Shown: positions 1,925 to 20,709, counted from the first letter of the stretch. The stretch: DNA of 64,000 nucleotides from Patescibacteria group bacterium (GCA_041660165.1 JBAZWW010000002.1:132074-196073), one strand, 5' to 3'. Notes: generated by a model not told the origin, from the sequence alone. A program made the numbers and translations.

Positions 1925-2030
1925 GTTTTCGGACAGAGCGGTGACGGTATTTTCCCCTCGAATGCTGGTGCGTACTCCCACGGCATTCGGGGCGAGAATC
2001 AACTCGCTCCAAGAAAGTTTGGAGGTCCAG

Positions 2031-3773
2031 ATGGACCGTAAGTCACCGATCGTTGTGTTCGTTTCCATGTTCCTTCAGGGTTGTTACGGGTCACAGGCTC
2101 AGCTTGACCGAGCGCTCGAACAGCAGAACGGCGAGGGCGGAGGCACGGACGTCATCACGACGGATATGCCGTTTTCCGCCGGCTACGGAAGCCGTTGTGT
2201 GCAGGGGGCGAACGGTTCGTACTCGCATCAGTTTGTGAGCACGAAGTATGACCTTGACCTTGATACCCCGAACGACGTGAATGATCTGGTCTACGCGCCC
2301 ATGAGCGGGACGGCCTATGTGCATGATGACGGTTCGCACGGCTTTGGCCGGCACGTGAACCTGGATCTGCATGACGGCACGTACCTCATCATGGGCCACC
2401 TGAAAGAGGTGTTTGCGGGTAACGGCACGGACGTGGCGGTCGGGCAGATCCTGGGGTTTGAAGGAACCACCGGGAATTCTACCGGCGATCACGTGCATTT
2501 TGGCCGGCATTCGGGCGACGCCAAGAAAGCCGGGGGCTTGGGCGCCAGCCTGGAGGGACTTCAGGTCAAAATGTTCGACGCCACGACTGGTACTGACGCG
2601 GAAGTCATGACCACGGACGCGGTCTGCGGGCTCACGGGCGGACATCTGTACAAATCGGAACTGCCAACCGCTCACTGGCATCCGGTGGGCACGTTTCTCA
2701 AGCGTCCCGGGGATTTGCTCGTGTTCGAGCGGACCTCCGGCAACGGCGTGCTGGCTTACATGAACGAAGACGCGTTCTTGAGCCGTGGGAACAGCTTCAC
2801 GAATGTGGCGCTGATCTCAGATGAGGAGCTGGCGTGTTACTCGCGCGCGGTCCCGGTGTACAGCCTGGGTTACGTGCGCGCTTTGCGGGATTCCGCGGGC
2901 GATGCCTGGATCCTCCTTGGCCAGGCCACGGACCCGGAACGCAAGCGTTTGCGGGTGGATGAAACCGGCGTGGCGGGCGTTCTGCAGAGCTACGGCATCA
3001 CTGCGTATTCGTACGACGACATTGACCATGGGGCCGATTCGGACATTCATTCCTACCCGAACGCGGGGCGGGCCGGCTACCGGGACGGAACGCTCTTGAG
3101 CCAGGCGGGCAAGAGCGACGTGTATGTCATGAACGCGGGGGTGGCCATGCCCATTCGGGACTGGGACACGTACTTGCTCATGGGGTTCGGCGGGCGGGAC
3201 ATCATCCGGGTCACGTCTGATGAGCTGAACACGAACATTCTGGTCAAGGGCAACTGCGCCACGGACACGTACTGTGTGACGCATGAAGACGTAACCACTT
3301 GTGGCGGAAACGCCAGTGAGGAGAACGGAAATGACACCGAAGAAGGCAGTCAAGAAACGGGAGAATTACCCGGGGATGCGGACACGGGAGTGGATGCAGA
3401 TCAGCCGGTGGATGCGGAAACGCTCACCGTTTCCTGGTCCACGCCCGGGAACGTCCGTGCCGATTGGATCACCATTGCCGGCACGTACCTGACGGCTTCC
3501 GGGGTTTCTACGCCTTGGAATCCCGTCCTGGCAGAAGGCCACAGCGCCACGGCCGTGGTCTACAGCCGGTATGACGCTACGCACGGTGACCGTTTCCGTT
3601 TTTCCGGGGCCTACGGCCTTGGCAACGTGGAAAATTGGTCCTGCGTGGCCCCGTTCCCGCCCGGCATCTTGCAGGGAACTGTCCGCGCCACGGTCAACGG
3701 GATCGCTGTCCCGGTTTCAGCCACGGCGGATCCTGACAGCCAAGGATGCCAGTTGCAAATCGACGTGCCGTGA
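2031..3773 (+). CDS. M23-family (LytM-like) metallopeptidase lipoprotein with a long C-terminal domain
   Basis: HxxxD and HVHFGRH (HxH) motifs of M23 peptidases. Signal peptide with lipobox LQGC starts at an internal Met (MDRKSPIVVFVSMFLQGC) preceded by GGAGG. The ORF track starts earlier, at 1941. Confidence 0.75.
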   Translation: MDRKSPIVVFVSMFLQGCYGSQAQLDRALEQQNGEGGGTDVITTDMPFSAGYGSRCVQGANGSYSHQFVSTKYDLDLDTPNDVNDLVYAPMSGTAYVHDDGSHGFGRHVNLDLHDGTYLIMGHLKEVFAGNGTDVAVGQILGFEGTTGNSTGDHVHFGRHSGDAKKAGGLGASLEGLQVKMFDATTGTDAEVMTTDAVCGLTGGHLYKSELPTAHWHPVGTFLKRPGDLLVFERTSGNGVLAYMNEDAFLSRGNSFTNVALISDEELACYSRAVPVYSLGYVRALRDSAGDAWILLGQATDPERKRLRVDETGVAGVLQSYGITAYSYDDIDHGADSDIHSYPNAGRAGYRDGTLLSQAGKSDVYVMNAGVAMPIRDWDTYLLMGFGGRDIIRVTSDELNTNILVKGNCATDTYCVTHEDVTTCGGNASEENGNDTEEGSQETGELPGDADTGVDADQPVDAETLTVSWSTPGNVRADWITIAGTYLTASGVSTPWNPVLAEGHSATAVVYSRYDATHGDRFRFSGAYGLGNVENWSCVAPFPPGILQGTVRATVNGIAVPVSATADPDSQGCQLQIDVP

Positions 3774-3780
3774 GAATCGT

Positions 3781-3820
3781 GGGGGGTGCTCATGGGAAAC
3801 CATGAGCGCCCCTCTTTTAC
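3781..3820 (+). terminator. Intrinsic terminator after the M23 peptidase gene
   Basis: ggggggtgctcatgg-gaaa-ccatgagcgcccc stem followed by TCTTTT. Confidence 0.55.
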
Positions 3821-3844
3821 ATCTCACTCACTTTCTCACTCTCG

Positions 3845-3853
3845 TGTTATAAT
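3845..3853 (+). promoter_or_regulatory. Extended -10 element TGTTATAAT lying 9 nt before the ATG at 3863 (candidate leaderless transcript)
   Basis: Sequence motif only. Confidence 0.3.
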
Positions 3854-3862
3854 CACACCGCT

Positions 3863-6800
3863 ATGCACCTCATTCCGCTTCTGCGGACAGGTTTGCAAAA
3901 ATATTTTAAGTTTCAAGGAGCCCTCTTCTTGGTGTTTTTTATTACCTTTGGCGTTTTTCTTATTCCGCAGGCTCATGTTTTTGCCGACTGCGCTTCTGAT
4001 TGTAGCGCGAACACAGCTCTGAATCCCGGAGATCCAGCCATCGCGGCGTGTGTGGCCGCTTGTCCTGCTAATCCCTCAACCACCACTCCCGCTTCATCAG
4101 ATGCTGTTACCGGCCCAACATGGGCACTTGATGTAGTGCTGACTCCGCTCACCACCATTCTTGATTACATCGCCGCGGGCATCGTGAAATTGACGCTCGT
4201 GATCATGGAAATGATCCTCATTCCAATTTTGAACTACAACTCATTTTCTACCAGTCCGATCATTGGCCTTGGCTGGTCTCTAGTCAGAGACGTGATGAAC
4301 ATGTTTGTCATTATCTCCCTTCTCTTCATTGCCATTTTTACCATTGTTGGCAATCACCGCGCACATTGGGAACAGCAGTTACCTCAGCTTTTCCTGGCTG
4401 TCATTTTCATGAATTTTAGTAGGACTATCTGCGGTATTTTAATTGATATCAGCCAAGTGGTCATGTTTACGTTTGTGAACGCGCTTCTTGATATTGCGGC
4501 TGGAAACTTTGCCCAGCTTTTTGGCCTCCAGGAATTTGGCAAATACGCCAATCAAGATATTCTGACGTCCATTAACAATGGAACGGGTCTCAGTACGTCA
4601 TCGCAGTTTGTGGCTGCTTTTTTACGTATTCCATTATACGGAGCGATTTTTGCCATCCTTCTTTTACTCGCCCTTGCTTTCCTCTACCGCATTGTCATTC
4701 TCTGGGTCTTGGTTATTCTTTCCCCGGCCACGTTTCTCCTTGGCGGTCTCAAAGGCGTCTTTGGCCAGGCCGCGGGTGATCACGCTCAGTGGTGGGGAAA
4801 GTTTACGGGGGCGCTTCTCATGGGCCCGATTCTCACATTTTTCTTGTGGCTTTCGCTGGCTGCCGCTTCTTCTGGTTCTATTGCCCAATCTGAAAATTTC
4901 CCCACTCCGCAAAACGCGCAGTCTTACGGCTTATCGCTTGAGGTCTTTGATTCAAGCCATCTGACAAGTTTGATCCTGGCTTTGATTCTCCTCATTGCCG
5001 GCATGCAGATAGCTGGCGAGCAATCAAGCAAGGTGGGCGGTTTGGCCGGCCAAATGATTAACGAAGGGATGGGCCAGCGCGTGGTGAGCGGAGCGCTCCG
5101 GGCGCCGTTCCAGGCAGGCGCCTATGCCGGCAGGAAGGCTGACGTGTATGCCGGAAATAAACTTGAGATCGGAACACTCCGTGAAGGTCTTGGTAAGGGT
5201 ATCATTGGCGCCGGAGAAAGGCTGGCGCAAACCGGCGGAGTTGGTATGTATCTTGGCCGGGCAGTGGCTGCTGCCGGCGGAAATATTGAGCTTCAGGGCG
5301 AGCATCTGCGCGCTGAGCGCACGAAGGCCGCTACAGAGCGCGTGGGTAAGATGAGCGATTCTGAAAAAGCCATGCACATGGGCTTGCTGGCTACCGGCCA
5401 GAAGTCAAACATTCTTTCTACCAAAGAAGACTTTGACGCCGTGGCTCTTGATTTCATGAGCGATAAGGTGCAGGACGAAACCAAAGAGCACATTGCCCAC
5501 AATTTGGGTATCCATAAGAATACAGGCGAGAGCGATAAGGACTTTGAAGACCGTAAGGAGAGGGAGGTTGCTCCAGCCTTTAACAGGATGATGGCTCAGA
5601 CGCTGGAGTTTGCTAATAAACAGAAGAAGGCTGGTAAGCTTGATGATTCCGCAAAGAGCAAACTCACTTCGCTCAATACTAAGTACGCTGATCTTTTGAA
5701 GGATCCAGCGGAGACAGCCAAGTGGGTGGATGATGAAAAGTTCAACATGAATGACGCTCGTAAGCGTCCGGAGGTGGTTAATAACCCGGCCTTTAGAGAG
5801 GCGGCAAAAAGAAAGGTACTCAGAACCACAAAGGACAAAGATGGAGTTTCCAGGCCTGTTTACCTTTGGGATGAAATCAAGAAGGGCGTGTACGGTGACA
5901 AACTGAAGAAAGCTGCTGACAGTGTTGAGACTCCGCGGGCAACGACTGCCCAGAGGGTGGGCGAGGCTTTGAATGTGAGCAGAACGCCTCAGGAGGATCT
6001 TGAAAAGCATTTGAACTCTAAGACTGATGCGGTGAATATCGTTGGTGGTCTAAGAAATCCAGAAAGTGGTACCGGCCCGCAGGAAATGGTTCAGCCCATC
6101 CTTCAGCCAGCTGACCTTACGGGGAGCAGGGGTAAGGAAATCGGCGGAGCGATTATCAATTCAGAAGTGGATATTGCAAGCTCGCCCATTAAGACGGAGA
6201 TTGTCCAGAACATTGTTTCCACCCAGCCGGCAGAAACCATTGGCAAAGCGTTTAAGAATGAGCAGGTTAAACCGGCAGATATTCCGGCCAGCGCCTTTGC
6301 GTCTACAAACACGAACCGTCCAGCAGTGGTGGAGAGCGTCATCAAGGGCAATGTTGATGTGAAGTTCATGACTGCTCCTGCACAGGCTTCCTATAAGACG
6401 GCGCTTGAGGAGCTGAACACAAGCGGGGGCGTTAGTTCAAAGGATTATGTATCTGCCAAGTCTTCGCTTCTTGAGGCGGGCAGGCTCCAGCCGGGGAATA
6501 CGATTGATTCCGTTGTCTCTGGCATTACCAGAAATCCTACTACCGGCGCGGTTGCGCTTGATCCCTCAGCTTCAAGAGAGGTGAAACAAATTTTTGAGCA
6601 GAAGCCGGAGAATTATAAGTTTGTTGAACAGGAGATTCCTGCGTCTCCAACGGAGGTGAATGACTTTACGCAAGCTGTCGTTCAGACCGCTTCAGGCAAG
6701 AAAATCCAGGATCTTTCTGAGGCTTGGAAGAGCGCCAAGGGCCAACAGAAGACAGATCTCAAGAGCGCCATGGACGTGATTCATGAGTCTCTGGAGCGCG

Positions 6801-6898
6801 AGATCGCTAGCCGAGTGAACCCAAGGGTTCAGACAAAACAACAGATGCAGAACACGCTTGATGAGAGCGTGACCATTAGGACCAGGCTTGGCTTCTAG
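3863..6898 (+). CDS. Polytopic membrane protein, VirB6/TrbL/PrgH-like, with a signal peptide, at least six TM helices and a ~600-aa hydrophilic Lys/Glu-rich C-terminal tail
   Basis: Hydrophobic segments IAAGIVKLTLVIMEMILIPIL, IISLLFIAIFTIVG, ILIDISQVVMFTFVNALLDIAAG, YGAIFAILLLLALAFLYRIVILWVLVILSP and others. It sits directly upstream of VirB3- and VirB4-like genes, in pCF10 prgH-prgI-prgJ-like order. Confidence 0.5.
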   Translation: MHLIPLLRTGLQKYFKFQGALFLVFFITFGVFLIPQAHVFADCASDCSANTALNPGDPAIAACVAACPANPSTTTPASSDAVTGPTWALDVVLTPLTTILDYIAAGIVKLTLVIMEMILIPILNYNSFSTSPIIGLGWSLVRDVMNMFVIISLLFIAIFTIVGNHRAHWEQQLPQLFLAVIFMNFSRTICGILIDISQVVMFTFVNALLDIAAGNFAQLFGLQEFGKYANQDILTSINNGTGLSTSSQFVAAFLRIPLYGAIFAILLLLALAFLYRIVILWVLVILSPATFLLGGLKGVFGQAAGDHAQWWGKFTGALLMGPILTFFLWLSLAAASSGSIAQSENFPTPQNAQSYGLSLEVFDSSHLTSLILALILLIAGMQIAGEQSSKVGGLAGQMINEGMGQRVVSGALRAPFQAGAYAGRKADVYAGNKLEIGTLREGLGKGIIGAGERLAQTGGVGMYLGRAVAAAGGNIELQGEHLRAERTKAATERVGKMSDSEKAMHMGLLATGQKSNILSTKEDFDAVALDFMSDKVQDETKEHIAHNLGIHKNTGESDKDFEDRKEREVAPAFNRMMAQTLEFANKQKKAGKLDDSAKSKLTSLNTKYADLLKDPAETAKWVDDEKFNMNDARKRPEVVNNPAFREAAKRKVLRTTKDKDGVSRPVYLWDEIKKGVYGDKLKKAADSVETPRATTAQRVGEALNVSRTPQEDLEKHLNSKTDAVNIVGGLRNPESGTGPQEMVQPILQPADLTGSRGKEIGGAIINSEVDIASSPIKTEIVQNIVSTQPAETIGKAFKNEQVKPADIPASAFASTNTNRPAVVESVIKGNVDVKFMTAPAQASYKTALEELNTSGGVSSKDYVSAKSSLLEAGRLQPGNTIDSVVSGITRNPTTGAVALDPSASREVKQIFEQKPENYKFVEQEIPASPTEVNDFTQAVVQTASGKKIQDLSEAWKSAKGQQKTDLKSAMDVIHESLEREIASRVNPRVQTKQQMQNTLDESVTIRTRLGF

Positions 6899-6906
6899 GC
6901 TGGCGT

Positions 6907-8496
6907 ATGTCCATGCAACAACTGCTCAATATCTCGACCGCTAGAAAATTCCTCATTGAAGATCCCATCCTTAAAACGTACCGCAGGATCTTTGAGGAGC
7001 GCGGATTACCCGTTGAACGTCGGTCTGAGCTTTTGGATTTGACGAACGCGATTATTGATGGGGCGTTACCTCCGGCGGATGCCTCGGCCATCATTGAGAG
7101 CGCCTTTGGGCTTGATGAGGAAAAAGCAAAACAATTAACGTGCGACGTGCTCGGCTATGGCGTGTTGCCGCTTGAAAAGTTTATTCCAGGCATTCCTGAG
7201 GCCATTACCGCGCTCGGGGGCGAGGTGGAAAAGTATCCGGCTGTTCGTGTAGAGAAGGACAGGGTTTCGGCCTTTGCGTGGTCAGAGCGCCTGCAGAAAG
7301 AGGCGAACATTCAGTTTTCTGACGTGCTCACTAAACGACTGGCGCTTCTTTTGGAAGGCCGAATGAAGGGCGAGAAGAATGCGGAATCCTTACGGACATA
7401 CTTCGGCCGGTCACTCACAATTGGGGGCCTGGCGCTTCTGAAGGAACAAATTGACGCCCTGGCTACGGCCATTGAAGGAGAGGCGCCATTTGTAGAGCTG
7501 GTGAGTGATGAGGAATGGAAGAAGATGCAGGAGCCCGCGCCTGTGGTGGAGGGGTTTGACGACGCCAAACCCGTACGCGCGGGCGAGATTGAGATCCCGC
7601 CCGGCCATGAATTGGCCGCGGAGGTGCCGGTATTGGAATGGAGGGGAAGGACGGACGCTCGATTAGCAGAAGCGGTTGAGGCCTGTGTTGAGTCAGCGAA
7701 ACCGATTTTGCTCGACAAAAATATTGCGCTTCCAAAGTTCCGCGACCTGGCTGAAAAGAATATCCGCGGGGTTCGTGATCCAGGCAAGACGCGGGATATT
7801 TTGGAGAAGGAGTATGCGCTCTCCGGAGCCGATCTTCGCGTGGTCCTAGACGCGTTGTCTGCGGGGAAGAAAAAGTATGATGGAGAGAAAAGGCCGGCAG
7901 AGGATGGAGAGGGGAAAGAGGAAGGAGAGGGAACTGTAGAGCTGAGAGAATCAGACGCCATGGATGCAAAATTCTTGGCACTGACCAAGACCACGCCAAC
8001 GGAAAGTATTGCGCCTATCATGCCTGGATCAAGGGTGTCGGCTGCTAGAGAGGCCGGAACCGCTACCGTGAAAATGCTACGGCCAAAGCCTGCCAAGGCT
8101 GAGCTGACCGTGGGCAGTGTCTCGCCTACCTCGCCGGAAAGAAAAGTGACGGATGTAGTGCAGGCTTCCAGGCTGATGGGGCCGGCTGAACAGCTGAAGA
8201 ACATGAGTCCGCTAGTCTTTCGCCGGATGTCCTCTGACCCCGCAGAGGCCGCACAAAAGATTGATGACCTGTTGTCTTCGCTGGCGGTTGGTGGGTATGA
8301 GGACAAGGTGCACGGCATCAAGGCTTGGCGCGAGAGTCCCATGAACCAGCTGTATCTGACCATCGCGGAAGAGGCGCTTGGCGCCGGTCTTTCAGTGCCC
8401 GAGGTGGCAAGTAGGCGCAGAAAAGAGGGGAAAGACAGCCTCAGTCCCGCGGAAATTAAGGCGCTCGTTTCATTAAATGCGAAACTGCGTTTCTAG
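6907..8496 (+). CDS. Hypothetical acidic soluble protein (529 aa) within the T4SS-like cluster
   Basis: Long ORF with coding-like composition and no recognisable motif. Confidence 0.6.
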   Translation: MSMQQLLNISTARKFLIEDPILKTYRRIFEERGLPVERRSELLDLTNAIIDGALPPADASAIIESAFGLDEEKAKQLTCDVLGYGVLPLEKFIPGIPEAITALGGEVEKYPAVRVEKDRVSAFAWSERLQKEANIQFSDVLTKRLALLLEGRMKGEKNAESLRTYFGRSLTIGGLALLKEQIDALATAIEGEAPFVELVSDEEWKKMQEPAPVVEGFDDAKPVRAGEIEIPPGHELAAEVPVLEWRGRTDARLAEAVEACVESAKPILLDKNIALPKFRDLAEKNIRGVRDPGKTRDILEKEYALSGADLRVVLDALSAGKKKYDGEKRPAEDGEGKEEGEGTVELRESDAMDAKFLALTKTTPTESIAPIMPGSRVSAAREAGTATVKMLRPKPAKAELTVGSVSPTSPERKVTDVVQASRLMGPAEQLKNMSPLVFRRMSSDPAEAAQKIDDLLSSLAVGGYEDKVHGIKAWRESPMNQLYLTIAEEALGAGLSVPEVASRRRKEGKDSLSPAEIKALVSLNAKLRF

Positions 8497-8513
8497 CGTG
8501 GTAAAATACTGTC

Positions 8514-8954
8514 ATGCCCCGCAATCAATTCGTTGTCCCGCAGTTTCTTGACGTGGAGCCACGCATCATTGGCCCGATTACTGCTCGGCAATTTTTAATC
8601 ATGCTGACCGTCGTATTGGTAGACTTTGCCCTGTATCGCATTTTCATCAAGAGCATTCCAGGAATCCTGGTGACTGCCTTGCCGGTAACGCTTATTGGCT
8701 CGGTCTTTGCCTTTGGAAGAATGAACGGCCAGCCGTTTCATGTGATTGCTCTTAACGTTTTGCAGACCGTGCGCCGTCCGGCTAAGCGCGTGTGGGACAA
8801 GACCATGTCAGATATGGACCTGCGCGTGCTTATGAAAAAGGAGGAAGCTCCGCCATCCATCGTTCGCCACACCAAGGCCCCGCTTGAGCAGTCACGGTTG
8901 TCTGAACTGACACTCGTTGTAAATACCGGCGGTGTCTACAGCGGTGAGGAGTAA
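8514..8954 (+). CDS. Small two-TM membrane protein, PrgI/VirB3-like
   Basis: 146 aa with two hydrophobic helices near the N-terminus (FLIMLTVVLVDFALYRIF, ILVTALPVTLIGSVFAF). It lies immediately upstream of the VirB4 homologue, as VirB3/PrgI does. Confidence 0.4.
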   Translation: MPRNQFVVPQFLDVEPRIIGPITARQFLIMLTVVLVDFALYRIFIKSIPGILVTALPVTLIGSVFAFGRMNGQPFHVIALNVLQTVRRPAKRVWDKTMSDMDLRVLMKKEEAPPSIVRHTKAPLEQSRLSELTLVVNTGGVYSGEE

Positions 8955-8956
8955 TT

Positions 8957-9652
8957 ATGGCCAACGCAAAAAACAATCTAGCAAAACCAAAAGCGGGACC
9001 GCCAACCCAGCGGTATTTGGATATTGCGGAGATTAGGGAAGACTGCGTGGTCTTAAAAGACGGCACGCTCCGTTCAGTATTGCTTGTATCGAGTATTAAC
9101 TTTGCCCTCAAAAGCGAAGATGAACAGCAGGCCACCATTCAGGGGTACATGCAGTTTTTGAATGGGCTTGATCACCCTATCCAAATCACTATTCAGTCCC
9201 GCCGGATGAACATTGACGCCTACATGGGGAAGCTGAAGGCGCAGGAAGAAACGATTCCGAATGAACTGTTGCGCGGACAGATTAGGGACTACATGTCCTT
9301 CGTCAAAGAGCTGGTTGAGCTGGGTGAGATCATGCAGAAGCGGTTTTTCGTCATCATTCCGTATGATCCGGCTGAGGGCGGGAAACAGCACGGTTTTTTT
9401 CAGAAACTGTCGGCGGCTATTTCACCGGCCGCAATTATCAAGCTGAATGCCAAACAGTTCGGTGAGCGCAAAGAATATCTCATGCAACGCGTAGGAAATA
9501 TTGCCGGCGGTCTGCAGAGCATGGGGCTTCAGGCGATTATGCTTGATACACAGGGGCTGATTGAGCTGTATTACAATTCCTACAACCCTGACGTTTCTGA
9601 GGTGCAAAAATTGGCTCCCATTGAAAAAATCCAGGTAGAAACCCGTTTCTAG
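8957..9652 (+). CDS. VirB4/TraE-family ATPase, N-terminal domain fragment (231 aa)
   Basis: YLDIAEIREDCVVLKDGTLRSVLLVSSINFALKSEDEQ resembles the conserved N-terminal region of Gram-positive VirB4 (PrgJ/TraE-type). It ends TAG one nucleotide before the ATG of the next ORF, which is in a different frame. Confidence 0.6.
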   Translation: MANAKNNLAKPKAGPPTQRYLDIAEIREDCVVLKDGTLRSVLLVSSINFALKSEDEQQATIQGYMQFLNGLDHPIQITIQSRRMNIDAYMGKLKAQEETIPNELLRGQIRDYMSFVKELVELGEIMQKRFFVIIPYDPAEGGKQHGFFQKLSAAISPAAIIKLNAKQFGERKEYLMQRVGNIAGGLQSMGLQAIMLDTQGLIELYYNSYNPDVSEVQKLAPIEKIQVETRF

Positions 9653-9653
9653 T

Positions 9654-11567
9654 ATGGCTTTTAACATTGATGAACTGAAAAAACAGCAGACCGTAGCTCC
9701 CATCAGGAGCGAGCGGAAACTTTCCTCTGCGGAAATGAGATCCCAGGAAGAGCGGGCCACGCTTGAAGAAGAGCGCTCGTTCAGGAGAGGCACCGTGTCC
9801 GTTCGTGATCTTATTGCGCCGGCGGCCTTTGAAGTCCAGCCCACGCATTTGGTACTTGGCGATAGATTTGTCCGCACGCTTTTTGTGACTACTTATCCGC
9901 GCTACGTTGGTATTGGCTGGGGCGCGCCGGTTATTAACTTCAAAGGAACAATTGATATCGGGATGTTTGTGTATCCCGTGAAGTCAGAGGTGATCTTGAA
10001 GCAGTTGCGTGATAAAGTGGGACAGATTGAAGCGCAGATTGTGTCTGATAATGAATCCGGACGGCCTCGCGACCCAATTCAAGAAACGGCGCTCCGCGAC
10101 GTTGAGCAACTGCGCGATGACCTTACACAGGGCATTGAGCACTTTTTCCAATTTGCGTTTTATGTGACGCTCTACGCGTCAAGCAAGGTAGACCTTGATA
10201 AGCGGACAGAGGAAGTTGAGGCGATCTTTGGCGGAAAACTTATCTACAGCAAACGCGGGCTGTACCAGGCCGAGCAGGGCTTTAACTCCACGCTTCCTTT
10301 GTGTAATGACGAGCTGATGGTTACGTTCAACATGAACACTAGCCCCATCGCTAGTTCATTCCCATTTATTTCTTCCGATGTTTCAAGCGATAACGGCATT
10401 TTGTACGGCATCAACCGCCATAACAACTCGCTCATTTTGTTCGACCGCTTCTCATTGCAAAATGCGAATGCCGTGGTCTTTGCTACGTCTGGCGCAGGAA
10501 AAAGCTATGCGGTGAAGCTGGAAATCCTGCGTTCCATGATGATGGGCACGGATGTCATTGTTATTGACCCGGAAATGGAATACCGCCAGCTGTCTGATGC
10601 CGTGGGCGGGACGTACGTGAACGTTTCGCTGGCGTCTGAGGCGAAGATCAATCCCTTTGATCTGCCCAGGCCAAAGGGCGAGGAATCTTCCGTTGAGGAC
10701 ATTTTGCGTAGCGCCGTCATTACGATTAAGGGTTTGCTCCGCATCATGATTGGTAAACCCATGGGGGAGAAGTCAGTCCTTGGCTTCACGCCGGAAGAGG
10801 ATAGTTTGCTTGATCGAGCCCTTCTTGAAACGTACGCCAAGAAAGACATCACGCCTGATTTGCCAAGTTTGGCGGAGATTACCGATTATCCTATTCTGAA
10901 TGATCTGTTGGAAATTCTTGAGGGCATGCAGGGCGGTGAGAATTTGGTTGCTCGTCTGACAAAGTTTACAACGGGAACATTTTCCGGATTACTCAACTCA
11001 CCAACTACGGTGGAGATGCGCAATCAGCTGGTCATTTTTTCTGTGCGGGATCTTGAGGACGAATTGCGCGCCATGGCCATCTACACCATCGTCAACTACA
11101 TCTGGAACGTGGTGCGTTCAGAGCGGAAGAAGCGTTTGCTGACCATTGATGAAGCGTGGTGGCTCATGCAGAATGAGGACAGCGCCAAGTTCATTTTCGC
11201 CCTTGTGAAGCGCGCCCGCAAGTATTATCTTGGCGTGACCACCATCACGCAGGACGTGAATGACTTTTTGTCGAGTTCGTACGGCCAGGCGATTGTGACC
11301 AACTCCCAACTGCAGATTCTCATGAAGCAGTCATCGGCCGGCGTGGACGTAATTGCCAAGACGTTTAACCTGACGCAAAGCGAAAAATATCTGTTGCTTG
11401 AAGCCGGCGTGGGCGAGGGCATCTTCTTTGCCGGCCAGAAGCACGCGGCCATCAAGATTGTTGCTTCATACACGGAAGATCAAATCATTACCACGAATCC
11501 TGAGCAGTTACTTCAAATTGAGCGCGCCAAGGAAGAATTCCAGAAGTCCTTACAGCCACCCAAGTAA
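9654..11567 (+). CDS. VirB4/TraE-family conjugal-transfer-type ATPase, C-terminal ATPase part (637 aa)
   Basis: Walker A ATSGAGKSY, Walker B-like DVIVIDPE and LLTIDEAWWL, and the YPRYVGIGW region typical of VirB4. Confidence 0.75.
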   Translation: MAFNIDELKKQQTVAPIRSERKLSSAEMRSQEERATLEEERSFRRGTVSVRDLIAPAAFEVQPTHLVLGDRFVRTLFVTTYPRYVGIGWGAPVINFKGTIDIGMFVYPVKSEVILKQLRDKVGQIEAQIVSDNESGRPRDPIQETALRDVEQLRDDLTQGIEHFFQFAFYVTLYASSKVDLDKRTEEVEAIFGGKLIYSKRGLYQAEQGFNSTLPLCNDELMVTFNMNTSPIASSFPFISSDVSSDNGILYGINRHNNSLILFDRFSLQNANAVVFATSGAGKSYAVKLEILRSMMMGTDVIVIDPEMEYRQLSDAVGGTYVNVSLASEAKINPFDLPRPKGEESSVEDILRSAVITIKGLLRIMIGKPMGEKSVLGFTPEEDSLLDRALLETYAKKDITPDLPSLAEITDYPILNDLLEILEGMQGGENLVARLTKFTTGTFSGLLNSPTTVEMRNQLVIFSVRDLEDELRAMAIYTIVNYIWNVVRSERKKRLLTIDEAWWLMQNEDSAKFIFALVKRARKYYLGVTTITQDVNDFLSSSYGQAIVTNSQLQILMKQSSAGVDVIAKTFNLTQSEKYLLLEAGVGEGIFFAGQKHAAIKIVASYTEDQIITTNPEQLLQIERAKEEFQKSLQPPK

Positions 11568-11570
11568 GCT

Positions 11571-12128
11571 ATGAATAAGAAAGTGGAAATTGGGATTGCG
11601 GTTGGCATACTCGTCCTTCTGCTGATTGTGCTGGCGGTGCTTTTGCGCGCCAAACCGAATACGGTTAGCACGAAACCCGTGCAGGAGCAGATTCCAAACG
11701 CACAAACTAATCCCGGCAGTGTGCCGGTTGTTCCCGTGGTGGTCGCTCCCCCAGAACCGGCCGGACCGCAGACCACGGCCAGCATTTTTGTGGCCAGATT
11801 TGCCAGCTATTCATCTGAATCCGATTTTTCTAACGTGGCTGACGTGCTGGTTCTGGCGACTAAAACATTTCAGGCAAAACTGCAGGGCATTGCCCAGGAT
11901 CAGCGGACGCGAGATCTTTCCACCGCGTATTACGGCCTCTCCACAAAGGTAATTGGCAGTTCAGTTGTTCAAGAGGCAGAAACTTCTGCAGAGATCAAGC
12001 TTATGACCCAACAACAGGTATCTGTTGGCAGTCCGGGCAATACTACGGTGCAGTATAAGAACATTACTGTTGATCTGGTTAAAGAAGGAGATACATGGAA
12101 AGTGAACGGCTTTGCTTGGGAGAGCTAA
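11571..12128 (+). CDS. N-terminally anchored protein, possibly VirB8/PrgL-like with an NTF2-like domain
   Basis: Single N-terminal TM helix, a Pro-rich linker, and a ~130-aa C-terminal domain ending in ...EGDTWKVNGFAWES. The position after VirB4 matches prgL/virB8. Confidence 0.3.
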   Translation: MNKKVEIGIAVGILVLLLIVLAVLLRAKPNTVSTKPVQEQIPNAQTNPGSVPVVPVVVAPPEPAGPQTTASIFVARFASYSSESDFSNVADVLVLATKTFQAKLQGIAQDQRTRDLSTAYYGLSTKVIGSSVVQEAETSAEIKLMTQQQVSVGSPGNTTVQYKNITVDLVKEGDTWKVNGFAWES

Positions 12129-12736
12129 CCAGCTGGTTTTTAAACGCGGTCTTCCCGCGTTTTTGTCTGTCCTGCAAAACGGAAGGCGCTCTGCTTTGTC
12201 CGGCCTGTTTGCGTGCTTTTGATGATCGAGTATTCAGGGAGACTGACGGCCACCTGGCCCTCTTTGCGTACGGCAATCCGGCGATCCGAAATCTCATCCG
12301 CGCTTGGAAGTATGACTTTGATCAATCGGGATTCTCGACGCTCATGAAATTAGCTGAGCCAGGACACTCGACCATCAGAACTTTTATAGATAAGGCAGTG
12401 ATTATCCCGATACCATTATCTGATCTTCGAACAAGAGAGAGGGGCTTCAATCAGGCGGTCGTGCTTGGCGAGTGGGTTGCTGAGGTTTCGGGAAGTGAAA
12501 TGAGGGAGCTTTTAAAAAGGGGAGAAGCGAAGGGACACCAAGCTGAAAGAACTGAGGAGGAGAGAAAAAGAGCCATGGAGAAGAGTCCGTTCCTTTTAAA
12601 GGGGGGGAAGGTGCCAGAAAAGATTGTACTTGTTGATGATGTGTGGACAACAGGGTCAACCATGAGAGCGGCGGAGAGAACTTTGAAGGAAGGGGGAGTA
12701 AAAGAGGTGAAGTTTTTGACTATCGCGAAGGGGTAG
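12095..12736 (+). CDS. comFC: ComF-family phosphoribosyltransferase (ComFC)
   Basis: N-terminal CxxC...CxxC zinc finger (FCLSCKTEGALLCPAC) and the C-terminal PRTase motif KIVLVDDVWTTGSTM. The start is uncertain because it overlaps the previous gene. Confidence 0.8.
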   Translation: MESERLCLGELTSWFLNAVFPRFCLSCKTEGALLCPACLRAFDDRVFRETDGHLALFAYGNPAIRNLIRAWKYDFDQSGFSTLMKLAEPGHSTIRTFIDKAVIIPIPLSDLRTRERGFNQAVVLGEWVAEVSGSEMRELLKRGEAKGHQAERTEEERKRAMEKSPFLLKGGKVPEKIVLVDDVWTTGSTMRAAERTLKEGGVKEVKFLTIAKG

Positions 12737-12798: not shown

Positions 12799-13242
12799 AT
12801 GCGCAAGATGACAGATGCCAGCGAGTACCTCATTGCGGAAATGCAGGATGAAGGGCACAGGGTGCGCCCTCTTAGGCGAGGCTTGGTTGAGATCTTCGCA
12901 ATGAGAAGGAGCCCCCTTACTTTAAAAGAAATTCAGGACATTCTTGGAAAGAAAAGAATTGTTCATCATCGAGTATCTCTGCACAGGGAACTGCGTTTTC
13001 TGCTTTCCTGGCACATTATTGCTCCAGTTACCTTTGCGGATGGATCTACGAGGTACGAATCTAATACACATGGTCATCACCACCATCTTATCTGCACTGG
13101 CTGTTCCGAGGTGGTGGATATCGAGATACCGGAAGGTGATCTTATAAAGATGGGTACAAAATTCGCTGACGAGCACTCCTTTTCTATAAATGAACATTCT
13201 TTAGAATTCTTCGGCCTATGCAAAAAGTGCAAGCGTTCCTAA
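12799..13242 (+). CDS. Fur-family metalloregulator, Zur-like by genomic context
   Basis: HHHHLICTGC and a C-terminal CKKCK metal-binding motif; lies immediately upstream of a metal ABC transporter. Confidence 0.75.
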   Translation: MRKMTDASEYLIAEMQDEGHRVRPLRRGLVEIFAMRRSPLTLKEIQDILGKKRIVHHRVSLHRELRFLLSWHIIAPVTFADGSTRYESNTHGHHHHLICTGCSEVVDIEIPEGDLIKMGTKFADEHSFSINEHSLEFFGLCKKCKRS

Positions 13243-14123
13243 TTGGCGGGGCGGTTATTGCGTGCGTGGCTATTGGCGTTGTTTGGCGCTGGCGGTCTTT
13301 GCCGAGCGTGCCGGCTGTTGCGGATAGCCGGTTATCCGTGGTGGCTACGTTTTATCCGTTGGCCGAGTTTGCCAAGCAGGTGGGGGGCGAGGATATTCAA
13401 CTAGAGCAGATGGTGCCAGACGGCGTAGAGCCTCATGAGTATGAGCCAACCAGCAAGCAGATCGCTTCGGCGAGTTCAGCTGACGTTTTTATCATGAACG
13501 GCGGGGGAGTAGACGCTTGGGCGGATGACGTGGCGGCCTCAGTGCGAGAGCATGGCGGGCTGGTTTTGAAAATGACGGAGGTTATTGAGACGAATCTGAA
13601 TGATCCGCATATCTGGCTTGATCCAAGCAAGGCCAAGGCCATGGTTGGCGAACTTGAAGGCCCGTTTATTTCGAGGGATGGGGATCATCGAGACGCCTAC
13701 GCTTTACGCTCGAAAGACTATCTGACAAAGCTTGATATGCTCGATGTAAGTTATTCGTCAGGCCTGGCAAAGTGTAGTTTGCGAGAGATCATTGTCTCGC
13801 ATGATGCGTTCGGCTACCTTGGCGCGCGGTATACTTTCATTGTCCACGCCATTCTCGGGCTTTCGCCGGAGGCCGAACCGTCCGTGAAAGCCATCGCAGA
13901 TTTGACCGAGTTGGCAAAACGATCGCATATCACCACGATCTTTTTTGAAACCCTCGTCTCACCCAAGCTGGCGCAAACCCTTGCCGGCGAGGTTGGAGCA
14001 AGGGCCGAGGTGTTGAATCCGGTTGAGGGATTAACCGCCGAGGAAAGAACAGCCGGAAAAGATTACCTTGACCTCATGAATGATAATTTGCTCGCCCTAA
14101 AAACCGCCATGCTGTGCCAGTAG
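13218..14123 (+). CDS. Metal ABC transporter substrate-binding protein (ZnuA/TroA family)
   Basis: N-terminal signal anchor and VVATFYPLAEFAKQVGG typical of cluster-9 solute-binding proteins. Confidence 0.8.
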   Translation: MQKVQAFLIGGAVIACVAIGVVWRWRSLPSVPAVADSRLSVVATFYPLAEFAKQVGGEDIQLEQMVPDGVEPHEYEPTSKQIASASSADVFIMNGGGVDAWADDVAASVREHGGLVLKMTEVIETNLNDPHIWLDPSKAKAMVGELEGPFISRDGDHRDAYALRSKDYLTKLDMLDVSYSSGLAKCSLREIIVSHDAFGYLGARYTFIVHAILGLSPEAEPSVKAIADLTELAKRSHITTIFFETLVSPKLAQTLAGEVGARAEVLNPVEGLTAEERTAGKDYLDLMNDNLLALKTAMLCQ

Positions 14124-14830
14124 AAAAAACAAAAATAGTGTACTCGCTTAAAGATGTTGGCTTCTCCTATGGGGAGAATGTTGTGCTTGACGGCGTCACG
14201 GCTGATATTCATGAAGGGGATTACTTGGGGATCATCGGCCCGAACGGGGGAGGCAAAACCACCATTTTGAAAATATTACTCGGGTTGCTTTCACCAAGTG
14301 AAGGCTCGGTCGAGTTGTTCGGCAAGTCCATTGCCCGCAATCAAGAGCGTGCCAGGGTGGGCTACGTTCCCCAGCGCGCTAATGCGGTGGGCGAGCATTT
14401 TCCAGCCACAGTTTTTGAAATTATTGAAAGCGGTCAGACGCCAATCTTAAAGAACGCTCGAACGCTAAAGCGAGCCATTGAAGCCGCCGGCGTGAAACAT
14501 TTGCTCGGTCGTCTCATCGGTTCGCTCTCAGGCGGGGAACGTCAGCGCGTGCTCATTGCCCGCGCCCTGGCGTGCGACCCGAAGGTGCTCATACTCGACG
14601 AGCCAACCAGTGCAGTTGATGCCAAAGGCCAGGAAAAGTTTTACGAATTCATTCATGAGATTAGGGAGAAACTTCATTTGACGGTGATCCTTGTTTCTCA
14701 CGACATGGACATTGTGGCCCATGAAGTGGACACCGTCTTGTGCTTGAATCGCCATCTGATTTGCCATGGTCCGGCGGAAGAAATTATGCATCATCCCCAT
14801 CTTATCCACGGCCATAAACCCGTTAAATAA
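14114..14830 (+). CDS. Metal ABC transporter ATP-binding protein (ZnuC-like)
   Basis: Walker A GPNGGGKTT, ABC signature LSGGERQRV, Walker B ILDEPTSAVD. Confidence 0.85.
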   Translation: MPVEKTKIVYSLKDVGFSYGENVVLDGVTADIHEGDYLGIIGPNGGGKTTILKILLGLLSPSEGSVELFGKSIARNQERARVGYVPQRANAVGEHFPATVFEIIESGQTPILKNARTLKRAIEAAGVKHLLGRLIGSLSGGERQRVLIARALACDPKVLILDEPTSAVDAKGQEKFYEFIHEIREKLHLTVILVSHDMDIVAHEVDTVLCLNRHLICHGPAEEIMHHPHLIHGHKPVK

Positions 14831-14831
14831 T

Positions 14832-15938
14832 ATGCGCAAATTTCTGCTTGCCCTGGTTTTGCTGACTGCGCTCACGGTTCCCTTTGTTGCTTTTGCGGGG
14901 AATAATTCAGTGTATGTGCGCGGAAAAGTACTGGATATTATTGCTGAAGGAGAACGCGATTTGGGCGATGGGAGTATCGACAGATATCAGACAGTATCGG
15001 TTGAGTTCCTGAGCGGAACAGAGGCGAAAAAAGTGGTGACGATTGAGTTTACCGCTATGAAGCCGGGGTTTGAGCAGAAAAAGCTATACAAAGGGGAGAC
15101 GATTGTGGTTGGACAGACAGATGATGTGCGGGGGAGAACATATTATGTGCAGGACGCATTTCGTTTGCCGATTGTGGCCGTGTTCCTCATCCTCTTTTTT
15201 GTCCTTGCGACCGTCTTCGGCCGGGGCCAGGGCGCGCGTTCAGTTTTAGGCCTGGGCGTCAGTTTGTTGATTCTCATGGTCTTTGTGGTCCCGCGTATTT
15301 TTGCTGGCGAGAGCCCGCTTCTTATTTGTGCCATCGGCTCATCTATCATTGCGGTTGTTTCTATTTTATTAGCTCACGGTTTGCACCGGCGGAGTTTTGT
15401 GGCCCTGCTGGCTACGCTTTTGGCTCTGGTGATGGCCTTCATTTTTGCTTCTCTAGCTGTTCACTTTACTACTCTTTCTGGCAGTGGAACTGAGGAGGCG
15501 GTGTTTTTACAGCTCAATTATCTCTCCGGTATTGATCTGCGGGGACTATTGCTTGGCGGTATGGTTATTGGCGCTCTTGGCGTGCTTGATGACGTTACAA
15601 CTGCTCAGGTGGCGGCCATTGAAGAGATTCATAATGCCGATGCATCGCTTGATGCGCGCGAGCTTTACGCGCGGGGTTCATCCGTTGGCCGTGAACACAT
15701 CGCCTCGCTCGTGAACACGCTAGCGCTCGCGTACGTGGGGGCTTCATTTCCCATCTTTCTGCTTTTTTCAGCGCCGGATAATCCACCGCTGTGGGTTCTC
15801 TTAAACAGCGAGCAGATCATGGAAGAAGCTGTTCGAGCACTCGTGGGAGGCTCCGCGCTCATCCTGGCCGTTCCTATTTCAACAGCCTTTGCCGCCTTTA
15901 TCTTCTCGCGTCTGCCAGCCAAGAAAAAATATGTTTGA
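14832..15938 (+). CDS. YibE/F-family integral membrane protein, inserted inside the metal transporter operon
   Basis: Signal peptide MRKFLLALVLLTALTVPFVAFA followed by about seven TM helices. The ORF track start at 14766 overlaps znuC, so an internal Met is used here. Confidence 0.55.
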   Translation: MRKFLLALVLLTALTVPFVAFAGNNSVYVRGKVLDIIAEGERDLGDGSIDRYQTVSVEFLSGTEAKKVVTIEFTAMKPGFEQKKLYKGETIVVGQTDDVRGRTYYVQDAFRLPIVAVFLILFFVLATVFGRGQGARSVLGLGVSLLILMVFVVPRIFAGESPLLICAIGSSIIAVVSILLAHGLHRRSFVALLATLLALVMAFIFASLAVHFTTLSGSGTEEAVFLQLNYLSGIDLRGLLLGGMVIGALGVLDDVTTAQVAAIEEIHNADASLDARELYARGSSVGREHIASLVNTLALAYVGASFPIFLLFSAPDNPPLWVLLNSEQIMEEAVRALVGGSALILAVPISTAFAAFIFSRLPAKKKYV

Positions 15939-16731
15939 TATTCTTCATTACGCTTTTTTTGTTCGAGCACTCCTGGCCGGACTTTGTATTGGCGCGGCCG
16001 CCCCCTTGCTTGGCATGTTCGTTACGGTTAGGCGCCAGTCCCTCATTGCCGATACGCTTGCACATGCCTCTCTGGCTGGCGTGGCCATTGGCGCCGCGCT
16101 TGGCATTGACCCGCTCCTGGCCGCCGCCGTCTGCGCCGTCTTGGCCGCGGTCGTGATCGAGCGTCTGCGCGTGAACGGCAAGCTGTCTGGCGAATCCACG
16201 CTTGCAATTGTTCTTTCGGGAAGCCTAGCGCTCGCAGTTGTCATCATGAGCGCCACGGGGAATCTTAACGCTGGCGTTATCAGTTATCTCTTTGGCGGGA
16301 TTACTACCGTAAGCCAGCTTGATCTCTACTCAATCGCTATTATTTCCGGCATCGCCGTCCTGTTTTATCTGGCTACGCACAAAGTATTATTTCTCATTGC
16401 CTTTGACGAAGACATCGCCCGCGCCCAAGGCGTTCCCGTGGATCGCTTCAGTCTGTTCCTCGCTATTTTGACCGCGGCCATTGTAGCCGTTGGCATGCGA
16501 GTAGTGGGCGTCCTGCTTGTCGGCGCTCTTATGACCGTGCCCGTACTCGCCGCCGTCCAATTTGGCCTCAGTTTCAAAAAAACCGCCGTCTTGGCCGTTC
16601 TCTTCTCTGTGCTCAGTGTTCTCATCGGCCTCTTCGCAAGTTCATACCTTGATCTGGCTGCCGGCGGAACAATCGTCCTTCTTGCCATGGGCTTTTTCCT
16701 GGCCGGACTTTTGTACAAGTCAGCAAAGTAG
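15931..16731 (+). CDS. Metal ABC transporter permease (ZnuB/ABC-3 family)
   Basis: Start taken at MFDILHYAFFVRALLAGL; multi-TM ABC-3 permease pattern. Confidence 0.8.
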   Translation: MFDILHYAFFVRALLAGLCIGAAAPLLGMFVTVRRQSLIADTLAHASLAGVAIGAALGIDPLLAAAVCAVLAAVVIERLRVNGKLSGESTLAIVLSGSLALAVVIMSATGNLNAGVISYLFGGITTVSQLDLYSIAIISGIAVLFYLATHKVLFLIAFDEDIARAQGVPVDRFSLFLAILTAAIVAVGMRVVGVLLVGALMTVPVLAAVQFGLSFKKTAVLAVLFSVLSVLIGLFASSYLDLAAGGTIVLLAMGFFLAGLLYKSAK

Positions 16732-16918: not shown

Positions 16919-17971
16919 ATGGATCCACGAAGCAATCGAATCGGCAATATCCCCGAATCTGTCTGGTCCCTCATTAACCAAATCGACCATCTGAAGGGCC
17001 AATGGATCGGCGGTGCCAAACTGAACCCGCAAGCACTTGGTCGCTTGAAGCGGTCGGTTTTGGTGACATCGACTGGCGCGTCAACCCGTATCGAAGGATC
17101 GAAGCTGTCCGATGAGGATGTTGAGAAGTTCATGCGCGGTTTATCGCTACAAAAATTTACCGATCGGGATAAGCAGGAAGTGCAGGGGTACTTCGAGCTG
17201 CTCGAAAATATCTTTACCTCGTGGAAGCACATTCCGTTTACGGAGGGCGTTATCAAACAACTACACCGGGAATTATTGAAGTATGCGGACAAGGACGAGC
17301 GACATCGTGGAGAGTACAAAAAAATGGAGAACTCCGTGGAGATGTTCGATGAGTCAGGAAAGTCTGTCGGCATCATTTTTGAAACGACCCCCGCCTATCT
17401 CACGCCGAAGCGAATGGAGGAGCTCGTTGAGCGGACAGCGGGCGCGCTAAAGCAAGGCGAAAGTCATCCACTAGTCGTCATCGGAAACTTTCTTGTCGAA
17501 TTTCTTGCGATTCATCCGTTCCAAGATGGGAACGGGCGCCTTTCGCGCATTCTCACGAATTTACTACTGCTGAAGGCGGGATACGAATATGTGCCCTACG
17601 TCTCGCACGAGAAACTTGTCGAGGACAACAAGGCGGATTACTACGTCGCTCTCCGCAAGAGCCAAACTTCGCTCGGAACCGGGCGTGAGAATATCACGCC
17701 TTGGTTGGAGTTTTTTTTGACCATCTCGCTTGAACAGGCGCGACAAGCGATTGAGTTATTGTCGCACGAAAATATTGAGAAGATTCTCTCGCCCAAACAG
17801 CTCGCGGTGTGGCGGCATTTTGAACTCGTCCCTGAGGCGACTGCGGGTGATATCGCTAAGGCTACCGATGTTGCACGTCCGACCGTCTCACAAGCAATCG
17901 ATGTCTTGCTACGGTTGAAAAAGATTGAGCGTATCGGCCAAGGACGAACGACACGGTATCGGAAAGTGTAA
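16919..17971 (+). CDS. Fic-family protein (class II, with an N-terminal intramolecular inhibitory motif and a C-terminal wHTH-like tail)
   Basis: Canonical HPFQDGNGRLSR motif. An (S/T)xxxE(G/N) motif, STRIEG, is present near the N-terminus. A TTGCCG-N17-TATAAT promoter lies upstream. Confidence 0.85.
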   Translation: MDPRSNRIGNIPESVWSLINQIDHLKGQWIGGAKLNPQALGRLKRSVLVTSTGASTRIEGSKLSDEDVEKFMRGLSLQKFTDRDKQEVQGYFELLENIFTSWKHIPFTEGVIKQLHRELLKYADKDERHRGEYKKMENSVEMFDESGKSVGIIFETTPAYLTPKRMEELVERTAGALKQGESHPLVVIGNFLVEFLAIHPFQDGNGRLSRILTNLLLLKAGYEYVPYVSHEKLVEDNKADYYVALRKSQTSLGTGRENITPWLEFFLTISLEQARQAIELLSHENIEKILSPKQLAVWRHFELVPEATAGDIAKATDVARPTVSQAIDVLLRLKKIERIGQGRTTRYRKV

Positions 17972-17980
17972 AGGCTGCGT

Positions 17981-18268
17981 ATGGGCAAACCCGTCAAAGC
18001 GCTTCATGCACTGAATTGGTACTACGGAAATATTTGTAGTCGCCAATGCCCGGAAGAGAAACAGCGTGAACATTATGAGCAGATGCGAGAGATCATTAAA
18101 GACCACGAGAATTTCATGATCACACACAAGATGTTCGTCAAAGTTATGCAGGAGAAGCACTGTGTATGCGAATCGTCAAACCTCCAACAGTCGCATCGAA
18201 GCTTCTGGAAACTCGATCATTCTGGCTGTCAGGATTTCTATCGTCATCTGTATGATCTCAGCCACTGA
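17981..18268 (+). CDS. Hypothetical small Cys/His-rich protein (95 aa)
   Basis: ORF lying between the Fic and helicase genes, overlapping the helicase start by 17 nt. The coding call is uncertain. Confidence 0.25.
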   Translation: MGKPVKALHALNWYYGNICSRQCPEEKQREHYEQMREIIKDHENFMITHKMFVKVMQEKHCVCESSNLQQSHRSFWKLDHSGCQDFYRHLYDLSH

Positions 18269-20408: not shown

Positions 20409-20420
20409 TCGGTAGATAGC

Positions 20421-20446
20421 AAAATGACTCCGAAAGGAGTCATTTT
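20421..20446. terminator. Perfect hairpin AAAATGACTCC-GAAA-GGAGTCATTTT (bidirectional terminator) after the helicase gene
   Basis: Read from the sequence. Confidence 0.6.
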
Positions 20447-20517
20447 GGCATGGGGACAATGCCTTATGGGTCGCCCCGTCGCCATCGGCACACGGGTTGC
20501 ACGATAAGAAATTGTCC

Positions 20518-20606
20518 TGGCGGAGGGGGCGAGATTCGAACTCGCGGAGGCTATTAACCTCGACGGTTTTCAAGACCGTTACCTTAAACCGCTCGGTCAC
20601 CCCTCC
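20518..20606 (-). tRNA. tRNA-Ser (anticodon UGA), with long variable arm and encoded CCA
   Basis: Minus-strand fold: acceptor GGAGGGG/CCCCTCC, anticodon loop cuUGAaa, long variable arm, T-loop TTCGAAT, 3'-GCCA. Confidence 0.8.
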
Positions 20607-20703: not shown

Positions 20704-20709
20704 TCTTTG

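Follow-up and report, generated by a model that had tools for sequence, protein, structure and literature searches.

A chromosomal type IV secretion operon ending in comF, probably non-conjugative and of the class ABY1 layout, in a Patescibacteria group bacterium

Organization of the locus

The analyzed window is a stretch of 64,000 nucleotides from a Patescibacteria group bacterium (GCA_041660165.1 JBAZWW010000002.1:132074-196073), which carries, at positions 2031-12736, a cluster of genes for a type IV secretion system (T4SS) with the competence-related gene comF at its end. An earlier sequence-only reading had counted ten consecutive plus-strand genes in this region. The cluster is real and lies on the plus strand, but the open reading frames (ORFs) and the gene calls on the source contig give eight genes (n=8), not ten. 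The first of them (2031-3773) encodes an M23 peptidoglycan hydrolase lipoprotein and is followed by a terminator-like hairpin (3781-3814, plus strand; a 15-bp stem with 10 G-C pairs, then a T run). Behind the hairpin lie, all on the plus strand, the genes for a VirB6-like polytopic membrane protein (3863-6898; the gene caller places the start at 3929), a 529-aa orphan cytoplasmic protein of three helical domains without a known relative (6907-8496), a PrgI/VirB3-like protein with two transmembrane (TM) segments (8514-8954), a TrsD-like protein that corresponds to the N-terminal domain of a full-length VirB4 (8957-9652), a VirB4 ATPase of the MPF_FATA type without that N-terminal domain (9654-11567), a bitopic VirB8/PrgL-like protein composed of a TM helix, a linker and an NTF2-like domain (11571-12128), and a ComFC-type ComF (12095-12736). 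The gaps between consecutive genes, from the VirB6-like gene through comF, are 8, 17, 2, 1, 3, and -34 nt, and the region 3863-12736 is a tightly packed operon. In the NCBI annotation of the source contig, the proteins WC802_02150 and WC802_02170 are listed as hypothetical. The G+C content of the T4SS operon (4-12 kb) is an ordinary 0.51-0.53, while in the region of the M23 gene (2001-4000) it is 0.59.

The locus was compared with those of 80 species-level metagenome-assembled genomes (MAGs), whose labels are Candidatus Uhrbacteria, Magasanikbacteria, Falkowbacteria or 'Patescibacteria group' (the first two are members of the GTDB class ABY1). The order from the VirB6-like protein to ComF is kept in ~70 of these 80 genomes, in Uhrbacteria and Magasanikbacteria, and because the same order recurs in so many relatives, the clustering goes far beyond chance. 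TrsD is found in all 80 loci, PrgI/VirB3 in 77, comF in 73, and the VirB8-like gene in 69 (counted at the ORF level). The VirB4 protein is 68-89% identical to its counterparts in the 80 MAGs. Housekeeping genes flank the locus, namely those for SerRS, CysRS, RecG, and RadA. The T4SS is a well-conserved, real machine. The locus as a whole is very probably a chromosomal, non-conjugative Patescibacteria T4SS with the layout of class ABY1 and with comF as the last gene of the operon, and neither a conjugative element nor a decayed one.

The PrgI/VirB3, TrsD, and VirB4 proteins

In profile searches both VirB3 and VirB4 pass curated thresholds. The product of 8514-8954 reaches 36.8 bits with the Pfam family PrgI (PF12666, cut-off 27), as expected for the VirB3/PrgI-like protein that had been proposed. 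VirB4 scores 333.6 bits with NF045971, the CD1110 family of VirB4-like conjugal ATPases (curated cut-off 325), and also matches PF19044 (E 1.4e-27). By passing this curated MPF_FATA cut-off, it agrees with the earlier description of the system as a Gram-positive-type T4SS. The Walker A (SGAGKS) and Walker B (LLTIDE) motifs are intact. The best alignment of VirB4 is with TrsE of the staphylococcal plasmid pSK41, over the full length (E 1.8e-42), whereas PrgJ of the enterococcal plasmid pCF10 aligns only from residue 222. A weak match to the archaeal CedB is also observed (E 8.2e-11, 41 bits versus a cut-off of 700).

The TrsD-like protein matches NF041427 (TrsD) with an E of 1.4e-5, below the curated cut-off, aligns with the N-terminal positions of VirB4 profiles, and has a precomputed assignment to PF26593 (TraC-like). 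What had been described as a VirB4 split into two ORFs is indeed two adjacent ORFs, but they represent a conserved TrsD and VirB4 pair: in 80 of 80 relatives the TrsD-like ORF (226-235 aa) and the VirB4 ORF (620-640 aa) are separate and lie a few bases apart. Because all 80 relatives have this split and pSK41 has the same order, the pair is best read as the normal two-gene architecture, with no frameshift involved. In the window the TrsD and VirB4 ORFs are in different frames and one base apart, as would also be the case in a decaying remnant with a frameshift-broken VirB4 and a non-functional system. The same arrangement and the same sizes in all 80 relatives, the same arrangement in the functional plasmid pSK41, and the intact Walker motifs speak against such decay; the separate TrsD and VirB4 of the relatives rule out a frameshifted VirB4 pseudogene, and we consider a dying system hardly credible.

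Residues 35-132 of the TrsD-like protein also match the N-terminal part of a phage terminase large subunit (phrog_2666, E 8.4e-10). This match either hints at an old kinship between the VirB4 and terminase N-terminal domains or reflects a mis-clustered PHROG.

The VirB8-like protein and ComF

The product of 11571-12128 carries a single TM helix, at its N-terminus, and matches no Pfam or other family directly. Its identity as a VirB8/PrgL-like anchored protein, already suggested by the earlier reading, is confirmed by fold and profile comparison (hhalign versus PrgL, E 1.4e-6).

The ComF protein matches TIGR00201 over model positions 13-190 of 190 (E 2.7e-23), with a score of 82.9 bits, which is below the curated 233. 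It has the architecture of the family, with an N-terminal four-cysteine zinc finger and a phosphoribosyltransferase-like domain. Across 70 sequences the zinc-finger residues C24, C27, C35, and C38 do not vary, and the phosphoribosyl pyrophosphate (PRPP) loop IVLVDDVWTTGST of the C-terminal domain is invariant as well. A comparison of the ComF profile with the PDB matched only the generic PRPP loop and is non-discriminating. The cluster thus ends in comFC, as had been claimed.

In the window, comF and the VirB8-like gene share 34 nt. The two genes adjoin in 63 of 65 loci (median gap -22 nt), which answers for synteny with comFC in related genomes, and comF lies 0.44-1.1 kb from VirB4 in 71 of the 73 loci with room for it. 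From this arrangement comF is predicted to be the co-translated terminal gene of the operon.

The VirB6-like protein, the orphan protein, and the M23 hydrolase

The VirB6-like protein (1011 aa) has ~8 hydrophobic segments within residues 1-400 and a tail (residues 430-1011) in which 28% of residues are charged. Relatives share the membrane core (~90-400) but differ in the sequence and length of the tail, and their orthologues have 737-1547 aa. Seven of 64 orthologues match the Pfam family TrbL/VirB6 (PF04610, best E 1.5e-5), the sole family matched repeatedly, and seven match NCBIfam families of Gram-positive or mollicute conjugative membrane proteins (CD3337/EF1877, pLS20_p028, Mbov_0396, MMCAP2_0566). 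Several comparisons weigh against the assignment. The window protein itself matches no family; hhalign against PrgH, TrwI, and TrsL gave nothing significant (best TrsL, E 0.0028, 11% probability); and neither the comparison of its profile with PDB sequences nor a local search of the pCF10, R388, and pSK41 ORFs with a hidden Markov model was significant. A tblastn search against plasmids likewise returned nothing significant. Topology, position, and these weak transitive matches suggest, tentatively, that the product of 3863-6898 is VirB6-like. Of the VirB6/PrgH-like protein with a ~600-aa charged tail that had been proposed, the polytopic core and a charged tail of 580 residues are found, but not the homology, the window protein being without a match.

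The 529-aa helical protein that follows (6907-8496) is a constant member of the ABY1-type locus. It has no TM segment and no Pfam match, and with 87 acidic versus 76 basic residues it is mildly acidic, in line with the acidic hypothetical protein noted before.

In the product of 2031-3773, the Peptidase_M23 domain (PF01551) is recognized with an E of 4.4e-12, and a lipobox-like FLQGC ends the lipoprotein-like signal that follows the start at 2031. The M23 gene is present in 29 of the 80 relatives, the closer ones only, and is probably a transcription unit of its own. By analogy, the lipoprotein can be regarded as a functional counterpart of VirB1.

Absence of mobility genes

Mobility functions were sought in the window ORFs of at least 120 aa, in the 10 kb upstream on the source contig, and in the conserved neighbour families of the related loci; the downstream edge of the window is the end of the contig. 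No relaxase domain was found in the scanned window ORFs or within the 10 kb before the window (no search for an oriT was made), and no integrase domain in the scanned ORFs of the 64-kb window, in the same 10 kb, or in the conserved neighbour families. A VirD4/TcpA-type coupling protein is absent from the window, from the 10 kb upstream, and from the conserved neighbour families of the 80 loci. The upstream 10 kb contain genes for a GNAT protein, CysRS, a radical-SAM enzyme, and a giant protein with a carbohydrate-binding module (CBM), and among the conserved neighbour families of the relatives Pfam identified SerRS and unknown large proteins, with no type IV coupling protein (T4CP) and no relaxase. 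The earlier observation that VirD4 and a relaxase are missing from the window holds in these domain scans, and neither gene appears just outside it, within 10 kb upstream.

The cluster could be imagined as a part of an integrative conjugative element (ICE) whose relaxase, VirD4, and integrase lie beyond the window, as its VirB4 family is that of Gram-positive conjugative elements and T4CP genes can sit far from virB4. However, order and position are kept between housekeeping genes in ~70 species-level genomes, the G+C content of the operon is ordinary (see above), relaxases are rare in Patescibacteria, and the window and the upstream 10 kb contain neither integrase nor relaxase nor T4CP. We therefore hold a conjugative element to be very unlikely, and membership in a larger ICE with its mobility genes further away to be highly improbable. 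As a candidate, an ICE or other conjugative element was rejected on the conserved housekeeping flanks together with the lack of mobility genes nearby. A point on the other side is the reach of the gene search, which comprises the window and 10 kb upstream, so that VirD4, relaxase, comEC, and dprA genes elsewhere in the MAG are outside its scope.

The conserved neighbourhood and its insertions

In the relatives, comF is followed by a gene for a small TM protein and by recG, and on the opposite strand by radA and the genes for a VirB2-like pilin-domain protein, a DsbA-like protein, and a further conserved protein. Counts for these neighbours refer to the 41 loci that extend far enough downstream (n=41). 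The small TM protein (21058-21597, plus strand; 22 of 41 loci) has no Pfam match, and its membership in the system is uncertain. The RecG helicase (23673-25769, plus strand), with Pfam RecG_wedge and helicase domains, is found in 17 of 41 loci. RadA/Sms (35871-37232, minus strand; Pfam KaiC/AAA_25/ChlI/Lon_C) is found in 16 of 41 and comes directly after recG in relatives.

Adjoining radA, also in 16 of 41 loci, is the gene for a secreted Cys-rich protein with a VirB2-like pilin hairpin (37236-38798, minus strand). The protein has 520 aa, a signal peptide, and two TM segments, and matches PF18895 (T4SS_pilin) in residues 202-258 (E 1.9e-9). The hairpin (residues 202-265) lies between two cysteine-rich domains, the C-terminal one with a weak M15 peptidase match. 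A DsbA-like thioredoxin-fold protein (38801-39436, minus strand; PF13462, E 4.5e-23) is encoded beside the pilin-domain gene in nine loci. The domain match suggests that the Cys-rich protein is probably a pilin or surface component of the T4SS, and it and its DsbA partner, although 25 kb off, probably belong to the system. With these two proteins at 37-39 kb in the same conserved neighbourhood, the designation of the T4SS as 'minimal' does not hold. For a 'pilin' the Cys-rich protein is unusually large, and it probably needs disulfide formation; the DsbA-like oxidoreductase is the product of the next gene.

In this genome, two insertions interrupt this neighbourhood and part the pilin-domain gene and its DsbA partner from the operon. 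The first (12.8-21 kb) contains a Fur/zinc-uptake operon, Fic, a TOTE primase-helicase, and tRNAs. Within it, at 12799-16731, a gene for a YibE/F-family membrane protein sits inside the Fur-ZnuA-ZnuC-ZnuB operon, between the ATPase and permease genes, and this placement is kept in the closest relatives (L001-L003 and L006 of the comparison set). The part at 16919-21707, with a Fic-domain protein, a TOTE conflict-system AEP primase-helicase (PF22548, E 4e-78), two tRNA-Ser, and one tRNA-Arg, is probably an insertion hot spot at tRNA genes.

The second insertion (25.85-35.82 kb), absent from 80 of 80 relatives, consists of genes for five paralogous anchored proteins and an AAA ATPase. The block (25852-35822, minus strand) splits recG from radA, which are adjacent in relatives. 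The five tandem paralogues (566-683 aa, 31-52% identical) have no Pfam match; each has an N-terminal TM anchor, and they share the motif GLAGLAAAAGF. Beside the fifth, at 34827-35822, a membrane-anchored AAA+ ATPase (AAA and AAA_lid_9) is encoded. Because none of the 80 related loci carries it, the block looks like a lineage-specific insertion, with a variable surface-protein array.

Two further regions are of separate interest. The G+C content drops to 0.45-0.48 at 51954-61585, versus 0.51-0.55 elsewhere, and the genes there encode a HEPN protein, a Type ISP restriction-modification enzyme (PF18135, E 4e-90), a DUF2779 protein, and a 1240-aa SNF2-type helicase; the region is likely a horizontally acquired defence island. 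About 8-10 kb upstream of the window (source contig L081, 18531-20558) lies a giant gene of 2975 aa with a faint CBM_4_9 match, and beside it a faint match to a Y1 (IS200-like) transposase. Giant surface proteins are typical of epibiotic Patescibacteria.

Relation to known systems

The locus corresponds to the T4SS of Patescibacteria surveyed by Quiñonero-Coronel et al. (Microb Genom 2025, PMC12102498). In that survey, the Patescibacteria VirB4 proteins form a monophyletic clade derived from MPF_FATA, and TrsD (the most abundant T4SS-associated component), PrgI/VirB3, VirB6, and VirB2-like proteins are found near VirB4. VirB8-like proteins occur almost only in class ABY1, relaxases are nearly absent, and T4CPs are distant. 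In class ABY1, comF, recG, and radA are co-located with the T4SS, while in other Patescibacteria classes it adjoins unrelated housekeeping genes, e.g. dnaA and dnaN. The authors propose, as a possible role of the T4SS, the uptake of DNA or other macromolecules from hosts. The present locus shares with the ABY1 system the MPF_FATA VirB4, the separate TrsD, the PrgI/VirB3 and VirB8-like proteins, a protein tentatively read as VirB6-like, the VirB2-like pilin domain, the lack of a relaxase and of a nearby T4CP, and comF, recG, and radA in the locus, and it differs in nothing essential. The details added here are the overlap of comF as the terminal gene, the constant 529-aa orphan, and the splitting of the locus by two insertions. 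The system, the ABY1 linkage with comF, recG, and radA, and the DNA-import hypothesis were thus already published in 2025 (PMC12102498).

Among plasmid systems, the staphylococcal Trs of pSK41/pGO1 (MPF_FATA, TrsD subclass) has the order trsC (VirB3-like)-trsD-trsE (VirB4). It differs in being carried on a plasmid with a relaxase, VirD4 (TrsK), a topoisomerase, and a single-stranded DNA-binding protein, whereas the window has none of these and is chromosomal. The enterococcal Prg/Pcf system of pCF10 has homologues in PrgI and PrgL and the overall order H-I-J-L. The proposal that the gene order mirrors prgH-prgI-prgJ-prgK-prgL of pCF10 stands in part, for H-I-J-L, but the hydrolase of the window is placed upstream, behind the hairpin, and the 529-aa protein and the TrsD-like gene have no pCF10 counterpart. 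In pCF10, moreover, the VirB4 protein PrgJ is full-length, the hydrolase PrgK is encoded between J and L and is of another enzyme class than the M23 protein, and adhesins, PcfC (VirD4), and the PcfG relaxase are present; the VirB6-like protein of the window shows no detectable similarity to PrgH.

The ComB system of Helicobacter pylori resembles the locus as a T4SS without relaxase and VirD4, proposed to act with ComF-type proteins, and offers a precedent for inward DNA transport. It is, however, a diderm MPF_T system with VirB7/9/10 and a VirB11 ATPase (as of 2026), none of which was found in the window, and its comF lies outside the comB operons. By ancestry the present system is a monoderm MPF_FATA one, and the label ComB-like does not fit it in that sense; any similarity to ComB would be convergent. 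The crenarchaeal Ced system (CedA/CedB) is an importer with a VirB4/HerA-like ATPase and a polytopic membrane protein, also without a relaxase, but it is archaeal, pilus-assisted, and has another accessory set.

Possible function of the system

The sequence analysis shows what the components other than VirB6 are, how the operon is built, that it is conserved, and that mobility genes are missing nearby; the assembly of the T4SS and the direction and substrate of its transport are inferred. VirB4 and TrsD, tethered by VirB3, would supply the energy for assembling a channel in the membrane, with the VirB6-like and VirB8-like proteins as its building blocks. This channel, perhaps bearing a pilus-like structure, would cross the wall opened by the hydrolase and contact another cell.

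In class ABY1 the single most likely substrate would be DNA, imported for recombination or as a source of nucleotides, though we rate this at less than an even chance. It is favoured because ComF binds single-stranded DNA (ssDNA) at the membrane, comF is predicted to be co-translated as the final gene of the operon, and recG and radA lie nearby. Binding of ssDNA at the membrane has been found for ComF in every system studied, and in H. pylori and pneumococcus ComFC-type proteins connect ComEC import to recombination. ComB and Ced demonstrate that T4SS-like machines can run inward.

Several points weigh against DNA import. In Southlakia epibionticum, the only Patescibacterium with genetics, comEC, comF, and dprA are not among the fitness genes although the T4SS is essential, and the authors of that work favour protein export or another role. 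A 2025 FEMS review states that the essentiality of the T4SS is not explicable by interaction with ComEC. In this compact genome neighbouring genes often overlap, so that the overlap of comF alone is no proof of a shared complex, and recG and radA may be mere housekeeping neighbours.

The sequence-only reading had proposed a ComB-like DNA uptake. In such a scheme the T4SS would draw DNA across the envelope and pass it to ComF, and to a ComEC encoded elsewhere in the genome, for transformation or nucleotides. The broader idea of a DNA-uptake or contact-dependent function is plausible and agrees with the published hypothesis of import (PMC12102498); the lack of a relaxase and T4CP/VirD4 among the genes found, the strong linkage of comF (last operon gene, adjoining in 63 of 65 relatives), recG and radA as conserved neighbours, and the precedent of ComB and ComFC in H. 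pylori argue for it. By descent, however, the system is not ComB, having an MPF_FATA VirB4 and neither VirB7/9/10 nor the VirB11 that ComB needs, and comEC, comEA, and dprA are not in the window. The Southlakia results bear on it most directly: competence there needs ComEC, yet growth proceeds without ComEC, ComF, or DprA but not without the T4SS, and therefore the essential role there is not Com-coupled uptake. We regard the ComB-like scheme as possible rather than probable.

The same essentiality of the T4SS for epibiotic growth, with Com genes that are not required, is what a host-interaction T4SS would lead one to expect. Such a system would export proteins or other molecules, or import something other than DNA, and comF, recG, and radA would be inherited synteny. 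The relaxase and coupling protein of conjugative DNA transport were not found in the window or the 10 kb upstream of it, the VirB2-like pilin-domain surface protein and the Cys-rich/DsbA pair suggest a contact organelle, and in other Patescibacteria classes the T4SS stands beside dnaA and dnaN. On the other hand, no candidate effector or secretion signal was identified, and the overlap of comF with the VirB8-like gene is kept down to 68% VirB4 identity, which is beyond loose synteny. We rate a host-interaction role at less than an even chance, about as likely as the import of DNA.

A further proposal, which appears unlikely, is that ABY1 ComF is a recruited cytoplasmic T4SS subunit that takes the place of VirD4, perhaps together with the 529-aa protein, for a Ced-like import of ssDNA from the host, with or without ComEC.

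Significance

The DNA-uptake idea raised for this window is sound but not new, and the window adds no new kind of system. It offers a clean, well-delimited example of the ABY1 T4SS and a parts list that includes the constant orphan protein. Patescibacteria provide the first demonstrated case of a T4SS that its owner needs for survival, and comF, welded to the ABY1 operon, is the strongest genomic hint of a DNA cargo. If the cargo is DNA, this would explain how nucleotide-auxotrophic bacteria feed on their hosts, and the system would join ComB and Ced as a third, independent example of a conjugation machine that has become an importer.

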